Assembly (NCBI GenBank): GCA_027482185.1
Contig: JAIXWF010000003.1
Location: forward strand, 376,809-408,808
Reading direction: 5' to 3'
Length of the DNA: 32,000 nt
Source: Opitutaceae bacterium
GTDB lineage: Bacteria > Verrucomicrobiota > Verrucomicrobiia > Opitutales > Opitutaceae
Within the stretch, counting starts at the first letter, position 1, and each line of letters starts with the position of its first letter. The notes under the pieces are model-generated. The model saw only the letters and a program-made list of their open reading frames with translations, was not told where the DNA came from and ran no database searches. Positions 2,564 to 22,677 of the stretch are shown here, in pieces. Both the position numbers and the translations under genes were made by a program.

Positions 2564-3823
2564 ATGCCACTCCGCTCCCCCGTCCGTTTCCCTCTCGGCC
2601 TCGCCGCGCTGGTCCTCGCGGTCGCGTGGCCCGCGGCCGGCGGCGCCGCCGAAGCCGTCGGGCGGCCGTTGGGCCCGTGGACCCGCGGCCAACTCGAGAT
2701 CCACCACATCGCCACCGGCCGCGGCAATGCCGCCCTCGTGATCGGACCCGACGGCACCACGCTGCTCATCGACGCGGGCGAAGCCGGCGGCACCGCCGAA
2801 GCGCTCTGCCCGCCGCGCCCCGATGGTTCCCGCCGGCCCGGCGAGTGGATCGCCCGCTACGCCCGCCGCCGTCTCACCCCGACCGGCCGCGCGGAGCTCG
2901 ACTACGCCGTCGTCACCCACCTCCATCCCGACCACCTCGGCAACCCGCAGCCCGATTCGCCGCGCTCCCGGCAAGGCGATTGGGCGCTCGCGGGGCTGAC
3001 CGAAGTCGCCGAACTCCTGCCGGTCCGCACCGTCATCGACCGCGGGTATCCGGATTATTCCTACCCGCGCCTCTCGCCCGCCGGCTTCGCGCGCAACTAC
3101 CACGCCTTCATCGCCGGCCGCCGCCGCGCCGGCGCCCCGGATGCGCGGCTAGTGCCGGGCTCCGCCGACCAAATCCGTCTCCTGCGCGCCCCTCAGGAGT
3201 TTCCCGCTTTCGCCGTGCGAAACCTCGCCGCCAACGGCGTCGTCTGGACCGGCCGCGCCGCGGAAACCGCCACCGCGGTGCCGCCGCTCGCCGACCTCGC
3301 CCCCGCCGATTACCCCGACGAAAACATGTGCTCGGTCGCCCTGCGCATTTCGTACGGCAAATTCGACTACTTCACCGGCGGCGACCTCCATTGCGACACC
3401 GCCTTCGGCACGATGCCGTGGCGCGATGTCGAGACCCCGGCCGCGCGCGCCGCCGGCCCCGTCGAGGTCGCGACCGCCAACCACCATGCCTACTTCGACG
3501 CCGTCGGCCCCGACTCCGTCCGCGCCCTCCAACCTCGCCTGTGGATCACCCAGGCCTGGCACCTCACGCATCTCAATATGGGCGTCCTCGAGCGCATGCT
3601 CAGCCCGCGGCTCTACGCGGGGCCGCGCGACGTCGTCGCGACCGACCTCCTCCCCGCCACCGCGCTGATGAACGAGCGCTTCATGAAACAGGTCCGCGCC
3701 ACCCTCGGCCACGTCGTCCTGCGCGTCGCGGCCGATGGCGCGAGCTTCACGGCCTACGTCACCGAGTGCCGCGACGAAACGGACACCGTGGTCGACATCC
3801 TCGGACCGTTTCCCTGCCGCTGA
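2564..3823 (+). CDS. secreted MBL-fold metallo-hydrolase (ComEC C-terminal-like beta-lactamase fold)
   Basis: ORF 2465..3823. I trimmed the start to the in-frame ATG at 2564, where MPLRSPVRFPLGLAALVLAVAWPAAG looks like a signal peptide. Also present: LEIHHIATGRGNAALVIGPDGTTLLIDAG and VVTHLHPDH (HxHxDH zinc-binding motif). Confidence 0.8.
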   Translation: MPLRSPVRFPLGLAALVLAVAWPAAGGAAEAVGRPLGPWTRGQLEIHHIATGRGNAALVIGPDGTTLLIDAGEAGGTAEALCPPRPDGSRRPGEWIARYARRRLTPTGRAELDYAVVTHLHPDHLGNPQPDSPRSRQGDWALAGLTEVAELLPVRTVIDRGYPDYSYPRLSPAGFARNYHAFIAGRRRAGAPDARLVPGSADQIRLLRAPQEFPAFAVRNLAANGVVWTGRAAETATAVPPLADLAPADYPDENMCSVALRISYGKFDYFTGGDLHCDTAFGTMPWRDVETPAARAAGPVEVATANHHAYFDAVGPDSVRALQPRLWITQAWHLTHLNMGVLERMLSPRLYAGPRDVVATDLLPATALMNERFMKQVRATLGHVVLRVAADGASFTAYVTECRDETDTVVDILGPFPCR

Positions 3824-7301: not shown

Positions 7302-7427
7302 GCAGTTGAGAGAGCTTGGTTGAGAGTTGAGAGCAGAACCGAACAGCCTCGGCGCATCTCTTTTCTGGCCAGGGCCTGAGCGCCGCTGGATTTTTCTCTC
7401 AACTCTCAACCGCAAACTCTCAGCTGC
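7302..7427. repeat. 126-nt hairpin element whose arms are four tandem heptads (GTTGAGA type / TCTCAAC type)
   Basis: Left arm heptads: GTTGAGA|GAGCTTG|GTTGAGA|GTTGAGA (7305-7332). Right arm heptads: TCTCAAC|TCTCAAC|CGCAAAC|TCTCAGC (7397-7424). Inner stem 7318-7333 / 7396-7411 is a perfect 16 bp. Outer stem 7302-7312 / 7417-7427 is 11 bp with one T:G pair. The two stems are separated by a 5x5 internal loop. The 62-nt apical part has its own pairing (7344-7347+7351-7355 with 7380-7388). The element starts 12 nt after the TonB-receptor stop. Confidence 0.85.
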
Positions 7428-9878: not shown

Positions 9879-9911
9879 GACCGATCCCCGAATCGCTCTT
9901 AGTTTCCGGCA

Positions 9912-9946
9912 GCTGACCGCTGATCGCTGACAGCTGATAGCTCAAA
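9912..9946. repeat. tandem heptad array GCTGACC|GCTGATC|GCTGACA|GCTGATA|GCTCAAA
   Basis: Five consecutive units with an exact 7-nt period, ending 2 nt before the stop codon of the permease gene. Contains two CAGCTG palindromes (9910-9915 and 9931-9936). Confidence 0.85.
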
Positions 9947-16280: not shown

Positions 16281-16404
16281 CTGTCTTCGTTCCAAGACAG
16301 GGGACAGGATCGACAGGAGACAACCAAGCCGGATTCACCGGACGCAATTCCGGGACGGGATTCCTTCCTGTCGATCCCGGATCGGCCGTCCTGTCCTTCC
16401 TGTC
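16281..16404. repeat. GACAGGR / TCCTGTC heptad hairpin complex between convergent pitA and gatB
   Basis: Left arm: GACAGGG|GACAGGA|tc|GACAGGA|GAC (16296-16321). The complementary unit TCCTGTC occurs at 16366-16372, 16389-16395 and 16398-16404. There is a perfect 12-bp pairing 16307-16318 / 16366-16377 and an outer 6-bp pairing 16296-16301 / 16399-16404. A 7-bp hairpin CTGTCTT-cgttcc-AAGACAG (16281-16300) lies right after the pitA stop. Several alternative pairing registers are possible. Confidence 0.8.
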
Positions 16405-16436: not shown

Positions 16437-17939
16437 TCAGTTCGTCGCGAGCAGCTTCCGCAGCGTCTCATCGACGGCCTTGGGGTTGGCCTTGCCCTTC
16501 GCGGCTTTCATGATCGGGCCCTTGAACGCGTTGATCGCGCTGTCCTTGCCGGATTTGAACTCCGCCAACGCCTTTGGGTTCGCCGCGATCGAATCGCGGC
16601 ACCATTGCTCGAGTTCGTTGCTGTCCGTCGGCGCCGCCTTGAGGCCTTTGCGATCCGCAATTGCTTCCGGGGAATCGCCCGTGGCGAACATCTCGACGAA
16701 GACTTCCTTCGCGGCCTGGTTCAGAATCGTGCCCGCATCGACGAGCTTCACGAGCGCAGCCAGCTGCGCGGGGCCGACCTTCGATTGCCCCAGTTCCAAT
16801 TTCGCGGCGCCCAATTCGCGCAGCAGGTCGTTGACGATCCAGTTGCCCACGGCCTGGGCCTTGCCGGCGCCGGCGGCGGTTGCGGCCGCCTCGAAGTAAT
16901 CGGCCAGCGCGCGGTCCCACACCAGCACCGAGGTCAACGTGTACGGCAGCTGGTACTGCTCGAAAAACCGGCGCTGCTTCGCGAACGGCAACTCGGGGCA
17001 TTCGGCCTGCAGGCGCGTTTTCCACGGCTCGTCGACGACGACCGGCATCAAATCGGGATCCGGGAAATAGCGGTAGTCGTGCGCCTCTTCCTTGGTGCGG
17101 AGGGACTGCGACGTGCCGGTCATGCCGTCGTAGTCGCGCGTTTCCTGCACGATCGTGCCGCCGCGCTCGAGCACGGCGAGCTGGCGCTTGATCTCGTGCG
17201 CGATGCCGTCGCGCACAAAGGAGATCGAGTTGAGGTTCTTCAGCTCGACCTTGGTGCCGAGCTTCGTCTGGCCCACGGGGCGGATGGAAATGTTGGCGTC
17301 GCAGCGCAACTGCCCCTTCTCCATGTCGCAGTCCGAGATGCCGCCGTAGACCATCGTCGCGCGCAGCGACGTGAGATAGGCGAAGGCCTCGTCGGCCGTG
17401 TGCATCGCCGGATCGGATACGATCTCCATCAGCGGCGTGCCGGCGCGGTTGTAGTCGACGAGCGAGTCGGAGGCGCCGTGGTTGAGTTTGCCCACATCCT
17501 CCTCGAGGTGGATGCGCGTGAGCGGGATGCGCTTGTGCTCGCCCATGACGTTGCGGGCGGAGCCGGGCAGCTCGATCTCGACCTCGCCGCCGAGGCAGAT
17601 CGGCTGGTCGTACTGGGAGATCTGGTAGTTCTTGGGCGAGTCCGGATAGAAATAGTTTTTCCGGTCCCATTTGCAGACCGGCGCGATGCGGCAACCGAGG
17701 AGGAGGCCGGCCTTGATGATCGCGTCGAGGGCGGCCTTGTTCATCACCGGCAACGCGCCCGGCAGGGCGAGGACGGTGGGATCGGTGAGCGTGTTGGGCT
17801 CGTGGCCGTACCCCGTGGCGACGCGCGTGAAGACCTTGGACCGGGCCTTGATCTGGACGTGGACCTCGAGACCGATGACGGCTTCGTAGGAAGAAGAAGA
17901 AAGAGACACAGAGGACACGGAGGGAATCGCGGAGTTCAC
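16437..17939 (-). CDS. gatB: Asp-tRNA(Asn)/Glu-tRNA(Gln) amidotransferase subunit B
   Basis: ORF 16437..17939. YEAVIGLEVHVQIKARSKVF is the canonical GatB N-terminus, and the YqeY-like C-terminal domain is present. The exact start is uncertain. The only in-frame candidates are GTG codons at 17939, 17918 and 17909, all inside the repeat arm. No ATG precedes the conserved YEAVIGLE. Confidence 0.9.
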   Translation of the reverse strand: MNSAIPSVSSVSLSSSSYEAVIGLEVHVQIKARSKVFTRVATGYGHEPNTLTDPTVLALPGALPVMNKAALDAIIKAGLLLGCRIAPVCKWDRKNYFYPDSPKNYQISQYDQPICLGGEVEIELPGSARNVMGEHKRIPLTRIHLEEDVGKLNHGASDSLVDYNRAGTPLMEIVSDPAMHTADEAFAYLTSLRATMVYGGISDCDMEKGQLRCDANISIRPVGQTKLGTKVELKNLNSISFVRDGIAHEIKRQLAVLERGGTIVQETRDYDGMTGTSQSLRTKEEAHDYRYFPDPDLMPVVVDEPWKTRLQAECPELPFAKQRRFFEQYQLPYTLTSVLVWDRALADYFEAAATAAGAGKAQAVGNWIVNDLLRELGAAKLELGQSKVGPAQLAALVKLVDAGTILNQAAKEVFVEMFATGDSPEAIADRKGLKAAPTDSNELEQWCRDSIAANPKALAEFKSGKDSAINAFKGPIMKAAKGKANPKAVDETLRKLLATN

Positions 17940-17943
17940 AGAG
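17907..17943. repeat. distal inverted-repeat arm of the GxxExxY cassette (CACAGAGGA|CACGGAGGG|aat|CGCGGAGTT|CACAGAG)
   Basis: 17907-17923 (CACAGAGGACACGGAGG) matches the reverse complement of 18333-18349 (CACAGAGGTCACGGAGG) at 16 of 17 positions. With one 1-nt indel, two more units also align (CGCGGAG~CACGGAG and CACAGAG~CACGGAG). The arm overlaps the GxxExxY stop codon and the first 11 codons of the longest gatB ORF. A 19-nt all-purine tract (17888-17906) lies next to it. Confidence 0.85.
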
Positions 17944-18313
17944 CAAGGCGCTTCAGGCCACGGGTCAAAATCGTTGCGCGGAAATTCAGGAGCAGTCCGA
18001 TCCGGCAGCGGGAAAACTTCAGGTAGGTGAGGACCTGCGCCTCATGGACGTCCAGCAATGCATCGACCGCCTTCAATTCGACCACCACCTGGCCGCCGAC
18101 CACAAAATCGAGGCGATAGGCATCCCCGATCACCAGGTCCTTGTAACCGACCGGACAGAGTTTCTGTTCCTCGAAAGCCAGACCGCGCAGGACAAATTCG
18201 TGGGCCAAGGCACACTGGTATGCGGACTCCAGCAGCCCCGGCCCGAGTTCGCGGTGCACCTCGATCGCAGCTCCGATCACCTGCTCCGTGAGGTGATTGA
18301 TATCGGGATTCAT
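17936..18313 (-). CDS. GxxExxY family protein (PD-(D/E)XK nuclease-like fold)
   Basis: Last 125 codons of ORF 17936..19042, starting at ATG 18313. MNPDINHLTEQVIGAAIEVHRELGPGLLESAYQCALAHEF carries the G-x-x-E-x-x-Y motif (GLLESAY). YRLDFVVGGQVVVELKAV gives a D...ExK catalytic-type motif. A length of about 125 aa is typical of the family. The upstream 243 codons of the listed ORF are an out-of-frame shadow of gatA. Confidence 0.85.
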   Translation of the reverse strand: MNPDINHLTEQVIGAAIEVHRELGPGLLESAYQCALAHEFVLRGLAFEEQKLCPVGYKDLVIGDAYRLDFVVGGQVVVELKAVDALLDVHEAQVLTYLKFSRCRIGLLLNFRATILTRGLKRLAL

Positions 18314-18349
18314 CTCCGTGGCCTCCGTGCCTCCTCCGTGACCTCTGTG
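18314..18349. repeat. proximal inverted-repeat arm of the GxxExxY cassette (CTCCGTG|G|CCTCCGTG|CCT|CCTCCGTG|A|CCTCTGTG)
   Basis: Read on the coding (minus) strand it is CACAGAGGT CACGGAGGAGG CACGGAGGC CACGGAG directly followed by the ATG. That gives four GGAG(G) Shine-Dalgarno-like units. It fills most of the 44-nt gatA-GxxExxY spacer. Confidence 0.85.
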
Positions 18350-18357
18350 CTCCAAAA

Positions 18358-19836
18358 TCACAGCACAGGGGTGCGCAGCTTCCAGTCGTGGCCGCGTTCG
18401 TAGGCTTGGGCGATGGCGAGGAGGTCGGCTTCCTTGAAGGGCTGGCCGATGAGTTGCACACCGATCGGCAGCGACGACTTCGTAAATCCGCAGGGCAAGC
18501 TCAGCGCCGGCAGGCCCGCGAGGTTCACGCCGATCGTGTAGATGTCGCACAGGTACATCGCCAGCGGGTCGCTCTTTTCCCCGAGTTTGAACGCCGGGAT
18601 CGGCGACGTCGGCGTGATCAGCGCGTCGACTTCCTTGTACGCATTCAGGAAATCCTGCCGGATCAACGTGCGCACTTTCTGGGCGCGCAGGTAGTAGGCG
18701 TCGTAGTAGCCGCTCGAGAGCACGTAGGTGCCGAGGATGATGCGGCGCTTCACTTCCGCGCCGAAACCCTCGGCCCGCGATTTGAAGTAGAGGTCGACGA
18801 TGTCTTTCGCGTCCGCGGAACGGTGGCCGTAGCGGATGCCGTCGTAGCGCGCCAAGTTCGAGGACGCCTCGGCCGTCGCGATGATGTAATAGGTATCGAG
18901 GCAGTACTGCGTGTGCGGCAGCGAGACTTCGCGGATCTCGCAGCCTTGGGCTTTGTAAAACGCAATCGCCTGCTCCACCGCCGCGCCGATTTCCGGATCG
19001 AGGCCGGCGCCGAAGTACTCCTTCGGAATGCCCAACTTCCAAGGTCCGCGCCGCGCCGCGAGTTCACGGCGGTAATCGGGAATCTCGGCCCGGTACGACG
19101 TCGAATCGCGTTCGTCGTGGCCGGCGATGGCGCCGAGCACGATCGCGTTGTCCTCGACGGTGCGCGTGAAGGGACCGATTTGGTCGAGCGACGACGCGTA
19201 TGCGATCAGACCGTAACGGGAAACCAATCCGTAGGTCGGCTTCAGGCCGACGACGCCGCAGAGCGCGGCCGGCTGGCGGATCGAGCCGCCGGTGTCGGAG
19301 CCGAGCGTCGCGATCGCCTCACCCGCCGCGAGCGCCGCGGCGCTGCCGCCGGACGAACCGCCGGGCACGCGCGTGACGTCCCACGGATTGCCCGTCGGGT
19401 GGAAGGCGGAATTCTCCGTCGACGAACCCATCGCGAACTCGTCGCAGTTCAGGCGGCCGTAGAGCACGGCGCCGGCGGCCTTGAGGCGCGCGGTCACGGT
19501 CGCGTCGTAGGGCGAGACGAAGTTCGCGAGCATCTTGCTCGAGGCGGTCAGGGGCTGGTCTTTGACAGCAATGACGTCCTTGAAACCGATCGGGATGCCG
19601 TCGAGCGGTCCGCGCGCCTGCCCCGCCGCGCGGCGGGCATCGGATGCGGCGGCCTGCGCGAGCGCGTCGGCCGGGTCGGCGGAATTGAAAGCGCGCACCC
19701 GCGGTTCGACGGCGGCGGCGCGGGCGATGACGGCCTGCGCGAGTTCGACCGCGCTCACCTCGCGCGCCGCGAGGGCGGCGGCGAGCTCGGCAATGGTGCG
19801 GTAGTGGAGCGGGACGGCGGACATGGCGGCGCTCAT
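18358..19836 (-). CDS. gatA: Glu-tRNA(Gln)/Asp-tRNA(Asn) amidotransferase subunit A
   Basis: ORF 18358..19836. Amidase signature region [45 protein letters not shown]. The ATG at 19836 overlaps the gatC TGA (ATGA). An alternative ATG lies at 19824. Confidence 0.92.
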
Positions 19837-20123
19837 TCGACGACCTTGGGCACGACGACCATGTTCTCGCGCTGCGCCGGCGCGTTGCGGAGCGCCTGGT
19901 CGGCGGGCAAGCCCGGACGGGCGACGTCCTCCTGCCAGACATTGTGCACGGCGAACGCGTGGGCCGAGGGCTCGACGCCGGCGACGTCGACCTTGGCGAG
20001 CTGTTCGATGTGGTGCAGCACGCTGCCGAGCTGCACGGCGAAGGTCGCCTTTTCCTCGGGCGTCAGGGCGACGCGCGCGAGTTTGGCGACGTGGTCGATG
20101 TCGAGTTGGGGCGCGGAGGACAT
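19833..20123 (-). CDS. gatC: Asp/Glu-tRNA amidotransferase subunit C
   Basis: ORF 19833..20192, trimmed to ATG 20123. The 96-aa product [55 protein letters not shown] ... VVPKVVE matches the typical GatC length and pattern. The start lies 4 nt after the pheT TAA. Confidence 0.85.
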
Positions 20124-20127
20124 GGCG

Positions 20128-22587
20128 TTACTTGCGGATCTGCCAACCGGTGGTCTGCACGACGTCGTCCTGCACCTTCTGGAAGACGGCATTCACTTCC
20201 TCGTCGGTCAGCGTCCGTTCCGCGGACCGGAACACGAGGTTGAACGCGAGGCTCTTCTTGCCCTCGGGCAGGCCGGGGCCCGTGTACACGTCGAAGACGG
20301 CGACCTTCTCGACGGCGAACGTGTTGCCCGCGGCGGCGCGCGCCGACTTGAGCAGGGCTTTCTGCACTTCGGCCGAAGTCGTCGCGGCGTCGACCACGAG
20401 GGCGACGTCGCGCAGCGCGGCCGGCAAAAGGCTGAAGTCGGCGAAACGGCGGCGCGCGGCGTCGGCGGAGAGTTTCTCCGGCAAAATCGCGAAGAGCCCG
20501 GCATAGACCTTGCCCTTGATCCCGAGGGATTTCACGAGCGCCAGATTCACGAGACCGAAGCGGGCCTGCCAGCCGTGGGCGATGTCGCCGGCGCCGGCGG
20601 ACTGGCCCTCTTGCCAACCGGGCACGCCGGCGAGCGGCGTCAGCGGCTGGCGCGCGAAATCGACGCCGGCGGCGGCGGCGATGGCGGCGAGGTGGTGCTT
20701 GGCGGCGTAGAAATCGGCGCCTTCGCGCTTGAGCCAGGAACGTTCGTCGACGGCCTCGGCGAGGAGGAAGGCGACGGCGGCGCACTCGACCGTTTGGCCG
20801 TTGCGCTCAAGGAAGATGCGGCCGGTCTCGGCGAGCCGGGACACGGCGACGCCGCGGGATTGGTTCAATTGCAACGAAGCCAGCAAACCGCCGACCAAGG
20901 TGGGCCGGAGATGCGATTGCTCTTCGACAAAGGGATTGGCCAAGCCGAGTTCGGCGGTCGCGGCGGCGGTGGTCCACGCGGCGACTTCCTTGGCGGGACG
21001 GAGCGTGTAGTTCACGCACTCGTGGAAATCGTGGCCGACGAGGTAGTCGGTCGCGCGGCGGTTGAAGAGGACGATCGGGTCGTCGTCGGTCAGCAGGCCG
21101 GGCGATTGCACGACGGCGGCGGGGATCTTCTCCGTGCCGTAGAGGCGCAGCACTTCCTCGACGAGGTCGATCGGGCGGTCGAGGTCGTCGCGCCAACTCG
21201 GCACGGACACCGTCCAGGCCAAGCCGCGGGCGGGCTGCTCGGTCGGCTCCTCGCGGGTGACGTTGAGCTCGAGGGACTCGAAGGCGGCGCGCATCTGCGC
21301 GGCGGGAATCGCGAAGCCGAGCTTCTCGTTGATGAAGGCCTCGGTGACGACGATCTCGCGCTGCCACGGTACGTCTCCGCCGACCCGATACGCCGGGCCG
21401 ACAACCTGGCCGCCGGCGGTGGCCAGAATGAGATCGACGGCGCGGTACGCGGCTTCGAGGGCGCCGTGCGGATCGACGCCGCGTTCATAGCGGTAGGACG
21501 AATCGGAACTGAGGGCCAGTTTGCGGGCCGTGGCGCGGATCGACTGCTTCTTGAAGATCGCGCATTCGAGCACCAGGTCGGTGGTGTCGGCGGACACGCC
21601 GGAGTTTTCCCCGCCCATGATGCCGGCGACGACGACGGGCTTGGCCGCGTCGGCGATGACGAGCATGTCGGGCGTGAGCGCGCGCTCCTTGCCGTCGAGG
21701 GTGACGATTTTCTCGTCCGCGGCGGCGCGGCGGACGACGATGCGGTTGCCGCCGAGCTTCTTCGCGTCGAAGGCGTGCAACGGCTGGCCCGTTTCGAGCA
21801 TCACGTAGTTGCCGACGTCGACGACGTTGTTGATCGGGCGGAGGCCGACGGCCTTGAGCCGTTCCTGGAGCCACGCGGGGCTGGGGCCGATCTTGATGCC
21901 CGTGATGACATGGGCCGTGTAGAGCGGGCAGTCCTCGGGGGCGTGGACCTCGACGCCGGCGAGCAGGTCGGCGCGGGCCGGACCGCCGACTTCGCCGCGG
22001 AATTGCTCCTGCGGGTAAACCAGCGGCAGCTTGAACCAGGCGGCGAGCTCGCGCGCGATGCCGAGGTGGCACTGGCAATCGGGGCGATTGGGCGTGATCT
22101 CGATGTCGAAGACCGTGTCGCCCGGCGGCAGCACGTCGTTGATCGGCGTGCCGAGGGCGGGTTTGCCCTCGAGAATGAGGAGGCCGGCGTGGTCGGAGCC
22201 GAGGCCGATTTCGTCCGGGGCGCACATCATGCCGTCGGAGAGCTGGCCGCGGATCTTGGACTGCTTGATCTGGAAATTGCCGGGCAGGACGGCGCCGGGC
22301 AGCGCGACGGGCACGCGGTGGCCGGCGTCGCAGTTGGCCGCGCCGCAGACGATCGTCTTCACGCCGCCGGCGGGGCCGATGTCGACGGTGCAGACGGAGA
22401 GTTTGTCGGCGTTCGGGTGTTTGCCGCGGGTGAGGATCTCGCCGACGACGACGTGCTCGAGTTTCGGCGCGCCCGTGGTGACGACGCCTTCGACCTCGAA
22501 ACCGAGGAAGGTGACGGCGCGGGAGATTTCATCGACGGAGGCGTCGAGGGCGACGTAGTCGCGGAGCCAGTTGAGGGAAATTTTCAT
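20128..22587 (-). CDS. pheT: phenylalanine--tRNA ligase beta subunit
   Basis: ORF 20128..22587 (819 aa). MKISLNWLRDYVALD is the canonical PheT N-terminus. The tRNA-binding, B3/4, B5 and FDX-ACB regions are recognisable. The 1402-aa plus ORF 18388..22596 is a shadow. Confidence 0.92.
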   Translation of the reverse strand: MKISLNWLRDYVALDASVDEISRAVTFLGFEVEGVVTTGAPKLEHVVVGEILTRGKHPNADKLSVCTVDIGPAGGVKTIVCGAANCDAGHRVPVALPGAVLPGNFQIKQSKIRGQLSDGMMCAPDEIGLGSDHAGLLILEGKPALGTPINDVLPPGDTVFDIEITPNRPDCQCHLGIARELAAWFKLPLVYPQEQFRGEVGGPARADLLAGVEVHAPEDCPLYTAHVITGIKIGPSPAWLQERLKAVGLRPINNVVDVGNYVMLETGQPLHAFDAKKLGGNRIVVRRAAADEKIVTLDGKERALTPDMLVIADAAKPVVVAGIMGGENSGVSADTTDLVLECAIFKKQSIRATARKLALSSDSSYRYERGVDPHGALEAAYRAVDLILATAGGQVVGPAYRVGGDVPWQREIVVTEAFINEKLGFAIPAAQMRAAFESLELNVTREEPTEQPARGLAWTVSVPSWRDDLDRPIDLVEEVLRLYGTEKIPAAVVQSPGLLTDDDPIVLFNRRATDYLVGHDFHECVNYTLRPAKEVAAWTTAAATAELGLANPFVEEQSHLRPTLVGGLLASLQLNQSRGVAVSRLAETGRIFLERNGQTVECAAVAFLLAEAVDERSWLKREGADFYAAKHHLAAIAAAAGVDFARQPLTPLAGVPGWQEGQSAGAGDIAHGWQARFGLVNLALVKSLGIKGKVYAGLFAILPEKLSADAARRRFADFSLLPAALRDVALVVDAATTSAEVQKALLKSARAAAGNTFAVEKVAVFDVYTGPGLPEGKKSLAFNLVFRSAERTLTDEEVNAVFQKVQDDVVQTTGWQIRK

Positions 22588-22592
22588 GTGAA

Positions 22593-22677
22593 GTAGCGGG
22601 TAGCGTGTAGTGAGTAGCGGGTAGTCCGGGCAGCGGTTAGGAATGATGCTCGCTACTCGCTACGCGCTACTCGCTAC
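22593..22677. repeat. 31-bp hairpin built from tandem heptads (GTAGYGN x5 / YCGCTAC x4) filling the pheS-pheT spacer
   Basis: Left arm: GTAGCGG|GTAGCGT|GTAGTGA|GTAGCGG|GTAGTCC (22593-22627). Right arm: TCGCTAC|TCGCTAC|GCGCTAC|TCGCTAC (22650-22677). Positions 22593-22623 pair with 22677-22647 as 26 Watson-Crick pairs plus 5 G:T pairs on the plus strand. The loop is 23 nt (22624-22646). Confidence 0.9.

Follow-up and report, generated by a model that had tools for sequence, protein, structure and literature searches.

A GxxExxY nuclease gene between inverted heptad arrays at the gatA-gatB junction of Opitutaceae, with a layout reminiscent of rRNA intervening sequences

The gatA-gatB junction and its inverted arrays

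The gatCAB operon of an Opitutaceae bacterium (NCBI GenBank assembly GCA_027482185.1) contains an additional small gene between gatA and gatB, which encodes a protein of the GxxExxY family and is enclosed by inverted arrays of the seven-nucleotide unit CACRGAG. The locus lies in a stretch of 32,000 nt (contig JAIXWF010000003.1, positions 376,809 to 408,808 of the forward strand), which is referred to as the window and in which all positions without a locus number are counted. The list of open reading frames (ORFs) gives the minus-strand order pheT (20128-22587), gatC, gatA, a 125-codon ORF, and gatB. A preliminary description, made from the letters of the window alone, had reported that the ORF between gatA and gatB is bracketed by inverted CACRGAG arrays, and this arrangement is confirmed here.

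On the messenger RNA (mRNA), the sequence 5' of the ORF reads CACAGAGG-U-CACGGAGG-AGG-CACGGAGG-C-CACGGAG-AUG and thus contains four CACRGAG units, the last of which touches the start codon. Translated in frame, this array gives the peptide EHRGHGGGTEATE-M, exactly as had been stated. The same description counted four GGAGG motifs resembling the Shine-Dalgarno (SD) sequence; there are actually three exact GGAGG motifs, two of which overlap, and one GGAG. The 3' arm begins inside the gene, with its last two codons and its stop codon, from which the mRNA reads GCUCUGUGA-ACUCCGCG-AUUCC-CUCCGUG-UC-CUCUGUG. Each repeat is composed of a 7-nt core and a spacer of ~2 nt, and most spacers of one arm do not match those of the other.

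The arms are able to pair in more than one register. In the first, 17907-17923 pairs with 18333-18349 over 17 nt at 94% complementarity, which is the core match previously noticed and is returned as such by a repeat finder; in the second, 17903-17922 pairs with 18314-18333 over 20 nt at 85% complementarity. The extended motif CACRGAGG occurs eight times in the window, five times within the arms, where shuffled sequences lead one to expect 2.6 occurrences in the window. Folding of the minus-strand RNA from 17880 to 18375, as had been suggested, gave a minimum free energy (MFE) structure in which both flanks pair (z -3.5; 0 of 100 shuffled sequences fold as well), and a duplex fold of the flanks only reached -59.9 kcal/mol (z -5.6). 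The stem sets the start and stop codons of the ORF side by side and covers the SD-like units, in line with the original proposal. A competing hairpin across the gatA stop codon, which had also been predicted, does exist (18341-18351 with 18362-18372, 11 nt, 91% complementary); its formation takes up the first heptad of the 5' arm, which is also the partner in the outermost pairing. A promoter and terminator scan of the element returned nothing beyond chance and no promoter-like site, and the Rfam scan found no family, including ribosomal RNA (rRNA), in the window.

The first array starts a few bases past the stop codon of gatA, and the second one reaches as far as the start codon of gatB or stops just short of it. 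In most relatives, GatB begins with ATG-AAY-TAC-GAA (MNYEAVIG), 20-60 nt beyond the arm. The gatB gene of the window has no ATG ahead of YEAVIGLE, and the GTG at 17909-17907 is in frame, seven codons before YEAVIG. Seven loci are without this ATG (the window, L008, L009, L014, L020, L023, and L120), all of which have an in-frame GTG 6-8 codons before (Y/F/C)EAVIG. For Opitutus sp. ER46 (L120), which is one of them, the GatB annotated by NCBI (P0311) has 491 aa instead of 485 and begins exactly at the GTG of the arm (L120 position 2201). Judged from the reading frame, the window gatB probably starts at the GTG inside the repeat, which belongs to the last heptad of the 3' arm. With this start codon, the stem would span the region from 8 nt past the gatA stop to the gatB start, and pairing of the outermost heptads would bury the latter.

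The coordinates of the features are collected in Table 1. According to the ORF coordinates, gatC and gatA overlap by 4 nt, ATGA, at the gatA start. The true gatC start likely lies near 20123, which would give a protein of 96 aa, as is the GatC of L119 and L122.

Table 1. Features of the gatA-gatB junction in the window
Feature	Position	Strand	Size	Basis or remark
gatC ORF	19833..20192	-		ORF coordinates
gatA	18358..19836	-	492 aa	ORF list; Pfam Amidase on orthologous genes in L001, L119-L127
gatA TGA stop	18360-18358	-		8 nt ahead of 5' arm
Local hairpin over gatA stop codon	18341..18372	-		inverted repeat; also in MFE fold
5' (proximal) arm	18314..18349	-		CACAGAGG-T-CACGGAGG-AGG-CACGGAGG-C-CACGGAG, touching ATG; holds SD-like GGAG(G) motifs
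GxxExxY / PDDEXK_3 gene	17936..18313	-	125 aa	hidden Markov model, AlphaFold 2 model, dN/dS
3' (distal) arm	17903..17943	-		GCTCTGTGA-ACTCCGCG-ATTCC-CTCCGTG-TC-CTCTGTG-TCTC; conserved in orthologs
Probable gatB start codon GTG	17907..17909	-		within last heptad of 3' arm
Rest of gatB	16437..17906	-		85-92% identity to annotated GatB proteins

The encoded protein

The membership of the protein in the GxxExxY and PD-(D/E)XK families, which had been assigned from its appearance, was borne out by hidden Markov models (HMMs): TIGR04256 (GxxExxY) matched with E 2.8e-41 and 140.5 bits (cut-off 35) over profile positions 2-114 of 116, and PF13366 (PDDEXK_3) with E 5.8e-40 and 136.7 bits (cut-off 22). 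The family motif takes the form G26-L-L-E29-S-A-Y32 and is situated in helix 1/2. Among 38 diverse members, the residues G26xxE29xxY32, D69, E79-x-K81, G106, N110, F111, and R122 are invariant, and Q93 and Y97 of a Q93xxxY97 motif are conserved in at least 90%. A shallow alignment of ~80%-identical sequences gave an unusable AlphaFold 2 model (predicted local distance difference test, pLDDT, 47.5); a diverse alignment raised the pLDDT to 96, with a predicted template modelling score of 0.89 and the element order H-H-E-E-E-H-E.

D69, E79, and K81 together with this fold make up a PD-(D/E)XK core, and the Foldseek matches are all PD-(D/E)XK nucleases. The best fold in the PDB is that of Cas4 SSO0001 (4ic1; E 0.011, probability 0.99, TM-score 0.46), followed by the LHK and lambda exonucleases, Bax1, and the Cas4-family protein ACE1, with weak matches to tRNA-splicing endonucleases, Hjc, and a homing-endonuclease domain. 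Sequence searches of the PDB, with the single sequence and with a profile, produced no match. The model suggests that the protein is a minimal, apparently active Cas4/RecB/lambda-exonuclease-like core that has a complete active site and no close solved relative. The QxxxY motif and the E, D, and ExK residues are common to this clade and the GxxExxY protein, which differs by its length of only 125 aa and a TM-score of only ~0.46. An identification as Cas4 itself was rejected: the PADLOC Cas4 HMMs match only weakly (E ~1e-3), no cas genes lie nearby, and the cysteine quartet of the iron-sulfur cluster is not conserved, the sole conserved cysteine being C103, and this within the Opitutaceae set only. 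Kinship with Holliday-junction resolvases, to which the preliminary description had drawn an analogy, was likewise set aside, because Hjc ST1444 (2eo0) appears at rank 29 (E 0.30, probability 0.44), whereas Cas4 and lambda exonuclease occupy ranks 1-13.

Orthologous loci in Opitutaceae

A locus scan with one genome per species found 32 loci. Nearly all close homologues (28 of 29, at 71-82% identity) lie between gatA and gatB, or beside whichever of the two genes the contig retains; the hosts include Opitutus, Rariglobus, Nibricoccus, Didemnitutus, and many metagenome-assembled genomes. The gene occupies the gatA-gatB junction in at least 30 Opitutaceae genomes. In the protein search, thousands of relatives were found at 78-89% identity, and P0045 occurs in the gatA-gatB context on 24 contigs.

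The arrays are present in every orthologous locus, and the 5' array of the window recurs in 26 of them. Upstream, the order is the gatA stop codon, (CACRGAG-NN) x ~4, and ATG, and the downstream array reads GCTCTGTGA-NCTCTGTG...CTCYGTG-NN-CTCTGTG. In 27 orthologous loci, a duplex fold of the upstream flank (60 nt) with the downstream flank (64 nt) gave 34-47 pairs in most cases, with shuffle z-scores down to -15. Two element types can be distinguished, namely a 125-aa type, in which the array touches the ATG, and a 126-aa type, which has a gap of 7-8 nt between array and ATG and a central GAGCTCGGAC segment. Their consensus structures contain 21 and 36 pairs, respectively.

The median ratio of nonsynonymous to synonymous substitution rates (dN/dS) is 0.07 for the GxxExxY gene, below the values of the gatB (0.11) and gatA (0.135) flanks, and this substitution pattern indicates that the gene is under strong purifying selection. 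A recent insertion, as the preliminary description implied, does not agree with a dN/dS of 0.07 and with the same position being kept in at least 30 genomes. The median dS among orthologs was higher for the GxxExxY gene (1.88, with many pairs saturated) than for the gatB (0.74) and gatA (1.06) segments, which would fit either a separate history or a weaker codon bias. At one locus (L022, 1300-1500), an extra ~200 nt lies between gatA and the GxxExxY gene and ends in a second copy of the 3' end of the gene together with the 3' arm (CTTGCTCCGTGACCTCTGGGCAACCTCATTCCGCCTCTGTG); it appears to be what is left of a second element arranged in tandem.

Inverted arrays across the GxxExxY family

An exhaustive profile-free search collected 20,256 clusters (50% identity) at E <= 1e-3. 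To this family belong 80 distant loci (47-75% identity) from metagenomes, which were analysed with two from the genome scan; 77 had sufficient flanking sequence. The unit CRCNRAG was counted 2.12 times per locus in the 90 nt upstream, compared to 0.20 per 90 nt inside the ORF, and its reverse complement 1.87 times in the 90 nt downstream, compared to 0.11 per 90 nt inside the ORF. CRCNRAG or CTYNGYG units were found on at least one flank in 70 of the 77 loci and on neither flank in the remaining seven; 35 loci are canonical on both sides, and two or more units stand upstream in 52 loci and downstream in 48.

The unit itself varies from element to element (CACAGAG, CGCAGAG, CGCGGAG, CACGAAG, CGCCGAG, and CGCAAAG), and the two arms vary together: the same dominant unit is used in both arms in 27 of the 35 canonical loci, where permuted data agree in 6.1 loci on average and in 13 at most. 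The polarity is also fixed to a large extent, with the purine-rich array upstream on the coding strand in 35 loci and reversed in four. The inner end of the 5' arm typically lies -3 to +7 nt from the ATG, and many elements have an outer clamp, CACC...GGTGA. Taken together with the 27 orthologous loci, these data establish that inverted heptad arrays are a trait of the whole GxxExxY family, as the preliminary description had surmised.

Its mention of database entries with spurious N-terminal extensions also proved correct. Such entries were found, and their extensions are translated from the arrays: MHRGHEGY..., ...NTEGTE-M, ...TTEGTEDTEA..., ...QRHRDTEGHGEEG..., ...GHRGTEAQRE..., and ..QRHRDTEGHGE.. 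are examples. Because the arrays translate into peptides of the HRG, TE, or SV type, the start codons of the family and of downstream genes are easily miscalled. Many family representatives (P0122-P0125, P0128, P0130, and others) are 263-295 aa long and contain two matched stretches; these may be fused tandem GxxExxY domains or two neighbouring genes called as one.

Turnover of the gatA-gatB junction

The contigs of eight GatB proteins that are 87-90% identical to that of the window were examined for the content of the junction. The gene is present in three of them, L120 (Opitutus sp. ER46), L123, and L126, and absent from the junction in five, L119, L121, L124, L125, and L127. The L127 junction is truly empty (gatA ...CTCTGA-A-ATG gatB), and L124 has a remnant of the 3' arm only (CTCTGTG CCCCCTGTG TCTCTGCGG). 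The junction of L119 (Horticoccus) holds a 95-nt gene-less CACGAAA/TTTCGTG hairpin with the CACC..GGTGA clamp, and those of L121 (2084-2200) and L125 (745-800) hold gene-less GTAGCGA/TCGCTAC hairpins.

As the correlation of element and host-gene pairwise distances was weak and noisy, bootstrapped trees were used instead. The host tree was built by neighbour joining from 230 C-terminal gatA and 440 N-terminal gatB residues with 300 bootstraps. In this tree, the gene-less L121 groups with L123 (125-aa type) at 100%, and this pair with L025 (126-aa type) at 95%; L015 (125-aa type) groups with L021 (126-aa type) at 100%. The nearest neighbour of the window is L124 with its remnant, and the empty L127 pairs with L120 (125-aa type). 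A tree of the elements separates the 125-aa from the 126-aa type with 78% support; in the host tree this separation receives 0%. Such interleaving of the junction states in the host tree implies repeated replacement of what the spacer contains. This exchange may have been brought about by insertion directed to the site or by ordinary recombination between alleles, with the conserved flanks as the regions of homology, and no target-site duplication could be defined between the empty L127 junction and the occupied ones.

The idea of a cassette advanced in the preliminary description is thus retained in part: an empty junction exists and the content turns over among close relatives, but the insertion is not a fresh one. 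The cassette-like element is an old resident of a turnover slot.

Other genomic settings and gene-less hairpins

The sole close paralogue outside gatAB (L026, regions 1336-2011 and 3151-3320) has thiG and thiH as its neighbours, each of which is followed by a gene-less CACAGAG hairpin. The GxxExxY gene lies between the two neighbours, within a direct duplication of ~85 nt; the duplicated stretch takes in the 3' half of the first hairpin, including the 3' arm. Pfam searches on the neighbours of ten other elements identified the pairs E1-beta and E2 of 2-oxoacid dehydrogenase, an HlyD-type fusion protein and an AcrB pump, two OTCase genes, aldehyde dehydrogenase and aminotransferase, and amidase and HAD hydrolase, among others. 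Where the upstream gene is co-oriented, its stop codon is mostly 25-60 nt from the ATG of the GxxExxY gene, which equals the length of an arm. Both neighbours are co-oriented in 24 of 49 loci, which is not above our own rough estimate for an ordinary bacterial gene; tight wedging is therefore claimed here, and an orientation bias is not. At one locus (L084, 203-1150), the gene directly upstream of GxxExxY encodes another PD-(D/E)XK nuclease (PDDEXK_1, E 1.3e-22).

Gene-less hairpins built from the same units as the element stand beside the gene in at least 12 loci. At L116 (898-2076), four such hairpins with loops of ~82 nt were observed, three of them ~180 nt apart downstream of GxxExxY and one upstream. 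The 32-kb window contains no gene-less CACRGAG hairpin. It does contain three gene-less hairpins of other units: 7302-7427, with GTTGAGA/TCTCAAC units (fold z -6.9); 16290-16404, with GACAGG/CCTGTC (z -3.6), between a convergent phosphate-transporter-like ORF and gatB; and 22594-22677, with GTAGCGG/CTCGCTA (z -6.0), in the spacer of pheT and its upstream ORF. A direct CAGCTGA x4.7 array at 9910-9942 has no significant fold. The hairpin near pheT belongs to the GTAGCGA family seen in the L121 and L125 junctions, which implies that families of heptad hairpins recur at different loci in different genomes.

Arrays of the same unit also occur in viral sequences. In the IMG/VR loci L128-L247, CACAGAG x3 arrays stand directly after stop codons and before phage genes (for example, L182 4052-4120 and L137 1040-1120). 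Among the products of these genes are proteins resembling tail fibres, a recurrent protein of 181 aa, and one of 336 aa. The arrays are often found beside other heptad arrays, such as CTTAAAA x4 and TGCGGAA x4. No GxxExxY cargo was found between CACAGAG arrays in IMG/VR, and neither PHROGs nor a cultured-phage collection contained a match to the protein.

Possible mechanisms

The observations above can be accommodated by a stem-bounded gene cassette in the gatCAB intercistronic spacer that resembles an rRNA intervening sequence (IVS), and in which a stem in the operon transcript limits translation of the nuclease and is, by analogy, probably processed, while the heptads may double as recognition sites of the nuclease. 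We assign a probability of about 0.45 to this reading. The element would have no promoter of its own and would be transcribed within the operon mRNA, where the arms would pair as an imperfect duplex of ~35-45 bp with the 375-nt ORF looped out. This duplex would set the gatA stop codon beside the gatB start codon and would bury the SD-like GGAG units, the ATG of the nuclease, and, in the window, the GTG of gatB. It would probably be cut by RNase III, by analogy with the intervening sequences of 23S rRNA, or the pairing would at least confine translation of the nuclease to the time before the 3' arm is transcribed. In this way the insert would be tolerable for the host operon, and little of the nuclease would be produced. 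Nuclease action together with host recombination might maintain or spread the element. The fixed polarity of the arrays, the presence of GGAG at SD distance, and the alternation of the innermost pair between A-U and G-U all point to a role in the transcript. In addition, the conservation of the heptad sequence itself across phyla, and not of complementarity alone, suggests that the arrays are probably also a recognition target of the nuclease.

Several results weigh against the transcript stem. Compensatory changes were seen in only a few pairs of the two consensus structures, 4 of 21 and 6 of 36, as the heptads are mostly invariant within Opitutaceae. A sense-strand wobble signature is also absent: mismatches in the heptad cores comprise 23 G.U and 17 A.C combinations and those of whole arms 31 and 54, respectively, a test whose asymmetry depends on the choice of positions, with the pairs picked by RNAalifold being biased towards G.U. 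Accordingly, pairing at the DNA level or a concerted evolution of the arms fits equally. The heptad cores of one arm show 94-96% Watson-Crick matches with those of the other. Most of the spacers between them fail to match, an unexpected feature if the stem served structure alone. None of the RNA runs searched for the window and for the widespread lake relative L001 contain either locus. Neither in the window nor in 80 related loci is an element situated within or beside rRNA, and Rfam detected no rRNA or other family there. Lastly, 106 of 153 CACAGAG x3 arrays in IMG/VR have no inverted partner within 1.5 kb, so that arrays exist, and perhaps act, without a stem.

Some of these results would be expected if the GxxExxY protein were a partner of the heptad hairpins at the level of DNA, which maintains or mobilises them in the manner of REPIN-RAYT systems, the gene-less hairpins being non-autonomous and the RNA stem a by-product. 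The combination of matched cores, diverged spacers, and conservation of the CRCNRAG core across phyla suggests sequence-specific recognition or concerted copying between the arms, beyond structure alone, and a lack of RNA-specific wobble bias agrees with it. So do the gene-less hairpins of the same unit beside the gene (L026 and the four copies of L116 among them), the position of the L026 gene inside a direct duplication of half a hairpin, the turnover of the junction with element types that are incongruent with the host tree, and the intact active site under strong purifying selection. However, the gene-less hairpins of the window use GTTGAGA, GTAGCGG, and GACAGG rather than CACRGAG, a 125-aa core like that of Cas4 and lambda exonuclease has no obvious strand-transfer activity, and no target-site duplication could be defined. 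An array polarity of 35 to 4 is moreover needless for a symmetric DNA cruciform, and ordinary homologous exchange of alleles via the gatA and gatB flanks could explain the turnover. On balance, a DNA partnership of this kind seems unlikely.

Alternatively, the arrays could act as a translational device, in which the 5' arm serves as a multiple-SD "standby" loading site and the 3' arm as its anti-SD-like partner, so that synthesis of the nuclease is limited and gatA is coupled to gatB, with neither RNase III nor mobility being involved. Both element types have GGAG(G) where an SD sequence would be expected: the penultimate unit of the 125-aa type is 9 nt before the ATG and the last unit of the 126-aa type is 8-10 nt before it. 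The innermost pair toggles between A-U and G-U (6 versus 5), whereby GGAG is made and the pair is kept; the 3' arm contains CCUCC; lone CACAGAG arrays immediately follow stop codons and precede phage genes; and the GTG start of gatB is inside the last heptad. Nevertheless, units such as CGCCGAG, CACGAAG, and CGCAAAG are poor SD sequences, yet the architecture persists in the members that have them, and hairpins that have the same arms but no gene offer no ORF for translation. The turnover of the slot and the association with one protein family would be left unexplained as well. We consider such a device, taken by itself, distinctly unlikely.

The retention of the position in at least 30 Opitutaceae genomes and a dN/dS as low as that of the neighbouring genes could also be explained by a domesticated host gene with a housekeeping role linked to GatCAB or tRNA, the stem being a regulator of the operon that is neither selfish nor mobile. 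This is very improbable given that five of the eight close relatives sampled are without the gene at the junction, that the element types do not follow the host tree, and that homologues with the same arms are situated in unrelated operons. As for chance or low-complexity sequence, short heptamer repeats are indeed over-represented in bacterial intergenic DNA (PMC4692102), but the shuffle controls, the conservation of the arms in 27 orthologous and most of the 77 distant loci, and an arm-to-arm unit agreement far above permutation reduce its probability to practically nil.

Relation to known systems

The closest described architecture is that of the IVS in 23S rRNA of Coxiella burnetii and Leptospira, which carries an S23p ORF encoding a four-helix bundle. 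The Coxiella IVS is 428 nt long, with a terminal stem of 28 bp and the S23p ORF in the loop, and two to three tandem GACAGAT heptamers of variable copy number touch the ATG, RNase III cutting at the first repeat (PMC4990558). Common to both are an element of ~430 nt, terminal inverted repeats forming a long stem (at least 20 bp), a small ORF in the loop, tandem heptamers that touch the ORF start with the SD region within the stem, and vertical inheritance after horizontal acquisition. The present element differs in its location between the protein genes of an operon instead of in helix 25 or 45 of 23S rRNA, and its cargo is a PD-(D/E)XK nuclease under strong purifying selection, whereas the Coxiella ORF, S23p, is decaying. 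Excision by RNase III is established for Coxiella and would apply here by analogy.

In REPIN-RAYT systems (repetitive extragenic palindromic, REP, sequences forming hairpins and the REP-associated tyrosine transposase), a single conserved gene is flanked by inverted hairpin repeats, gene-less copies occur elsewhere, and inheritance is largely vertical. The GxxExxY elements resemble them in the flanking inverted repeat copies and in a largely vertical inheritance of the gene; gene-less hairpins of the same unit occur at intergenic or intercistronic sites beside homologues in at least 12 other loci, and none with CACRGAG units is present in the window. They differ in the protein, which is a PD-(D/E)XK nuclease here and an HUH/Y1 transposase of the IS200/IS605 type (TnpA-REP) there, and in the arms, which are heptad arrays here and single REP palindromes there. 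As regards transposons and miniature inverted-repeat transposable elements, no transposase is present, the comparison of the empty L127 junction with occupied ones showed no clear target-site duplication, and a direct duplication of ~85 nt of arm sequence exists at L026.

Heptameric simple-sequence repeats (short tandemly repeated repetitive, STRR, sequences among them) are over-represented in bacterial intergenic DNA, an excess that is unexplained (PMC4692102). Those of Xanthomonas, Nostoc, and Calothrix likewise consist of tandem 7-nt intergenic units, sometimes as inverted stem-loop pairs, and vary at the same site between related genomes (PMC4692102). Their units are G-rich (GGGAATC and GGGGAYT), however, and they are not known to go with a protein family or an enclosed gene. 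In the searchable literature, no description of a GxxExxY gene within a heptad hairpin was found, and the family is barely mentioned.

Conclusions

PF13366/TIGR04256 is a very large family without known function; with the arrays, a concrete candidate for its substrate is available for the first time, along with a model that can be tested. The layout of an intervening sequence is extended from rRNA to mRNA operons, and the gatA-gatB junction is a naturally occurring slot for insertions, which in closely related genomes may be empty, occupied without a gene, or gene-bearing. In a broader version of the idea, the GxxExxY proteins in general would be the cognate enzymes of heptad hairpins, acting on hairpin or cruciform DNA or on double-stranded RNA, and would create, copy, or maintain the arrays and drive the turnover of the slot, which at present we regard as rather unlikely. 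If true, it would reveal an unrecognised and widespread system of selfish elements with more than 20,000 clusters (50% identity), analogous to REPIN-RAYT, and would help to explain why heptameric repeats are more frequent than expected in bacterial intergenic DNA and how rRNA intervening sequences arose.

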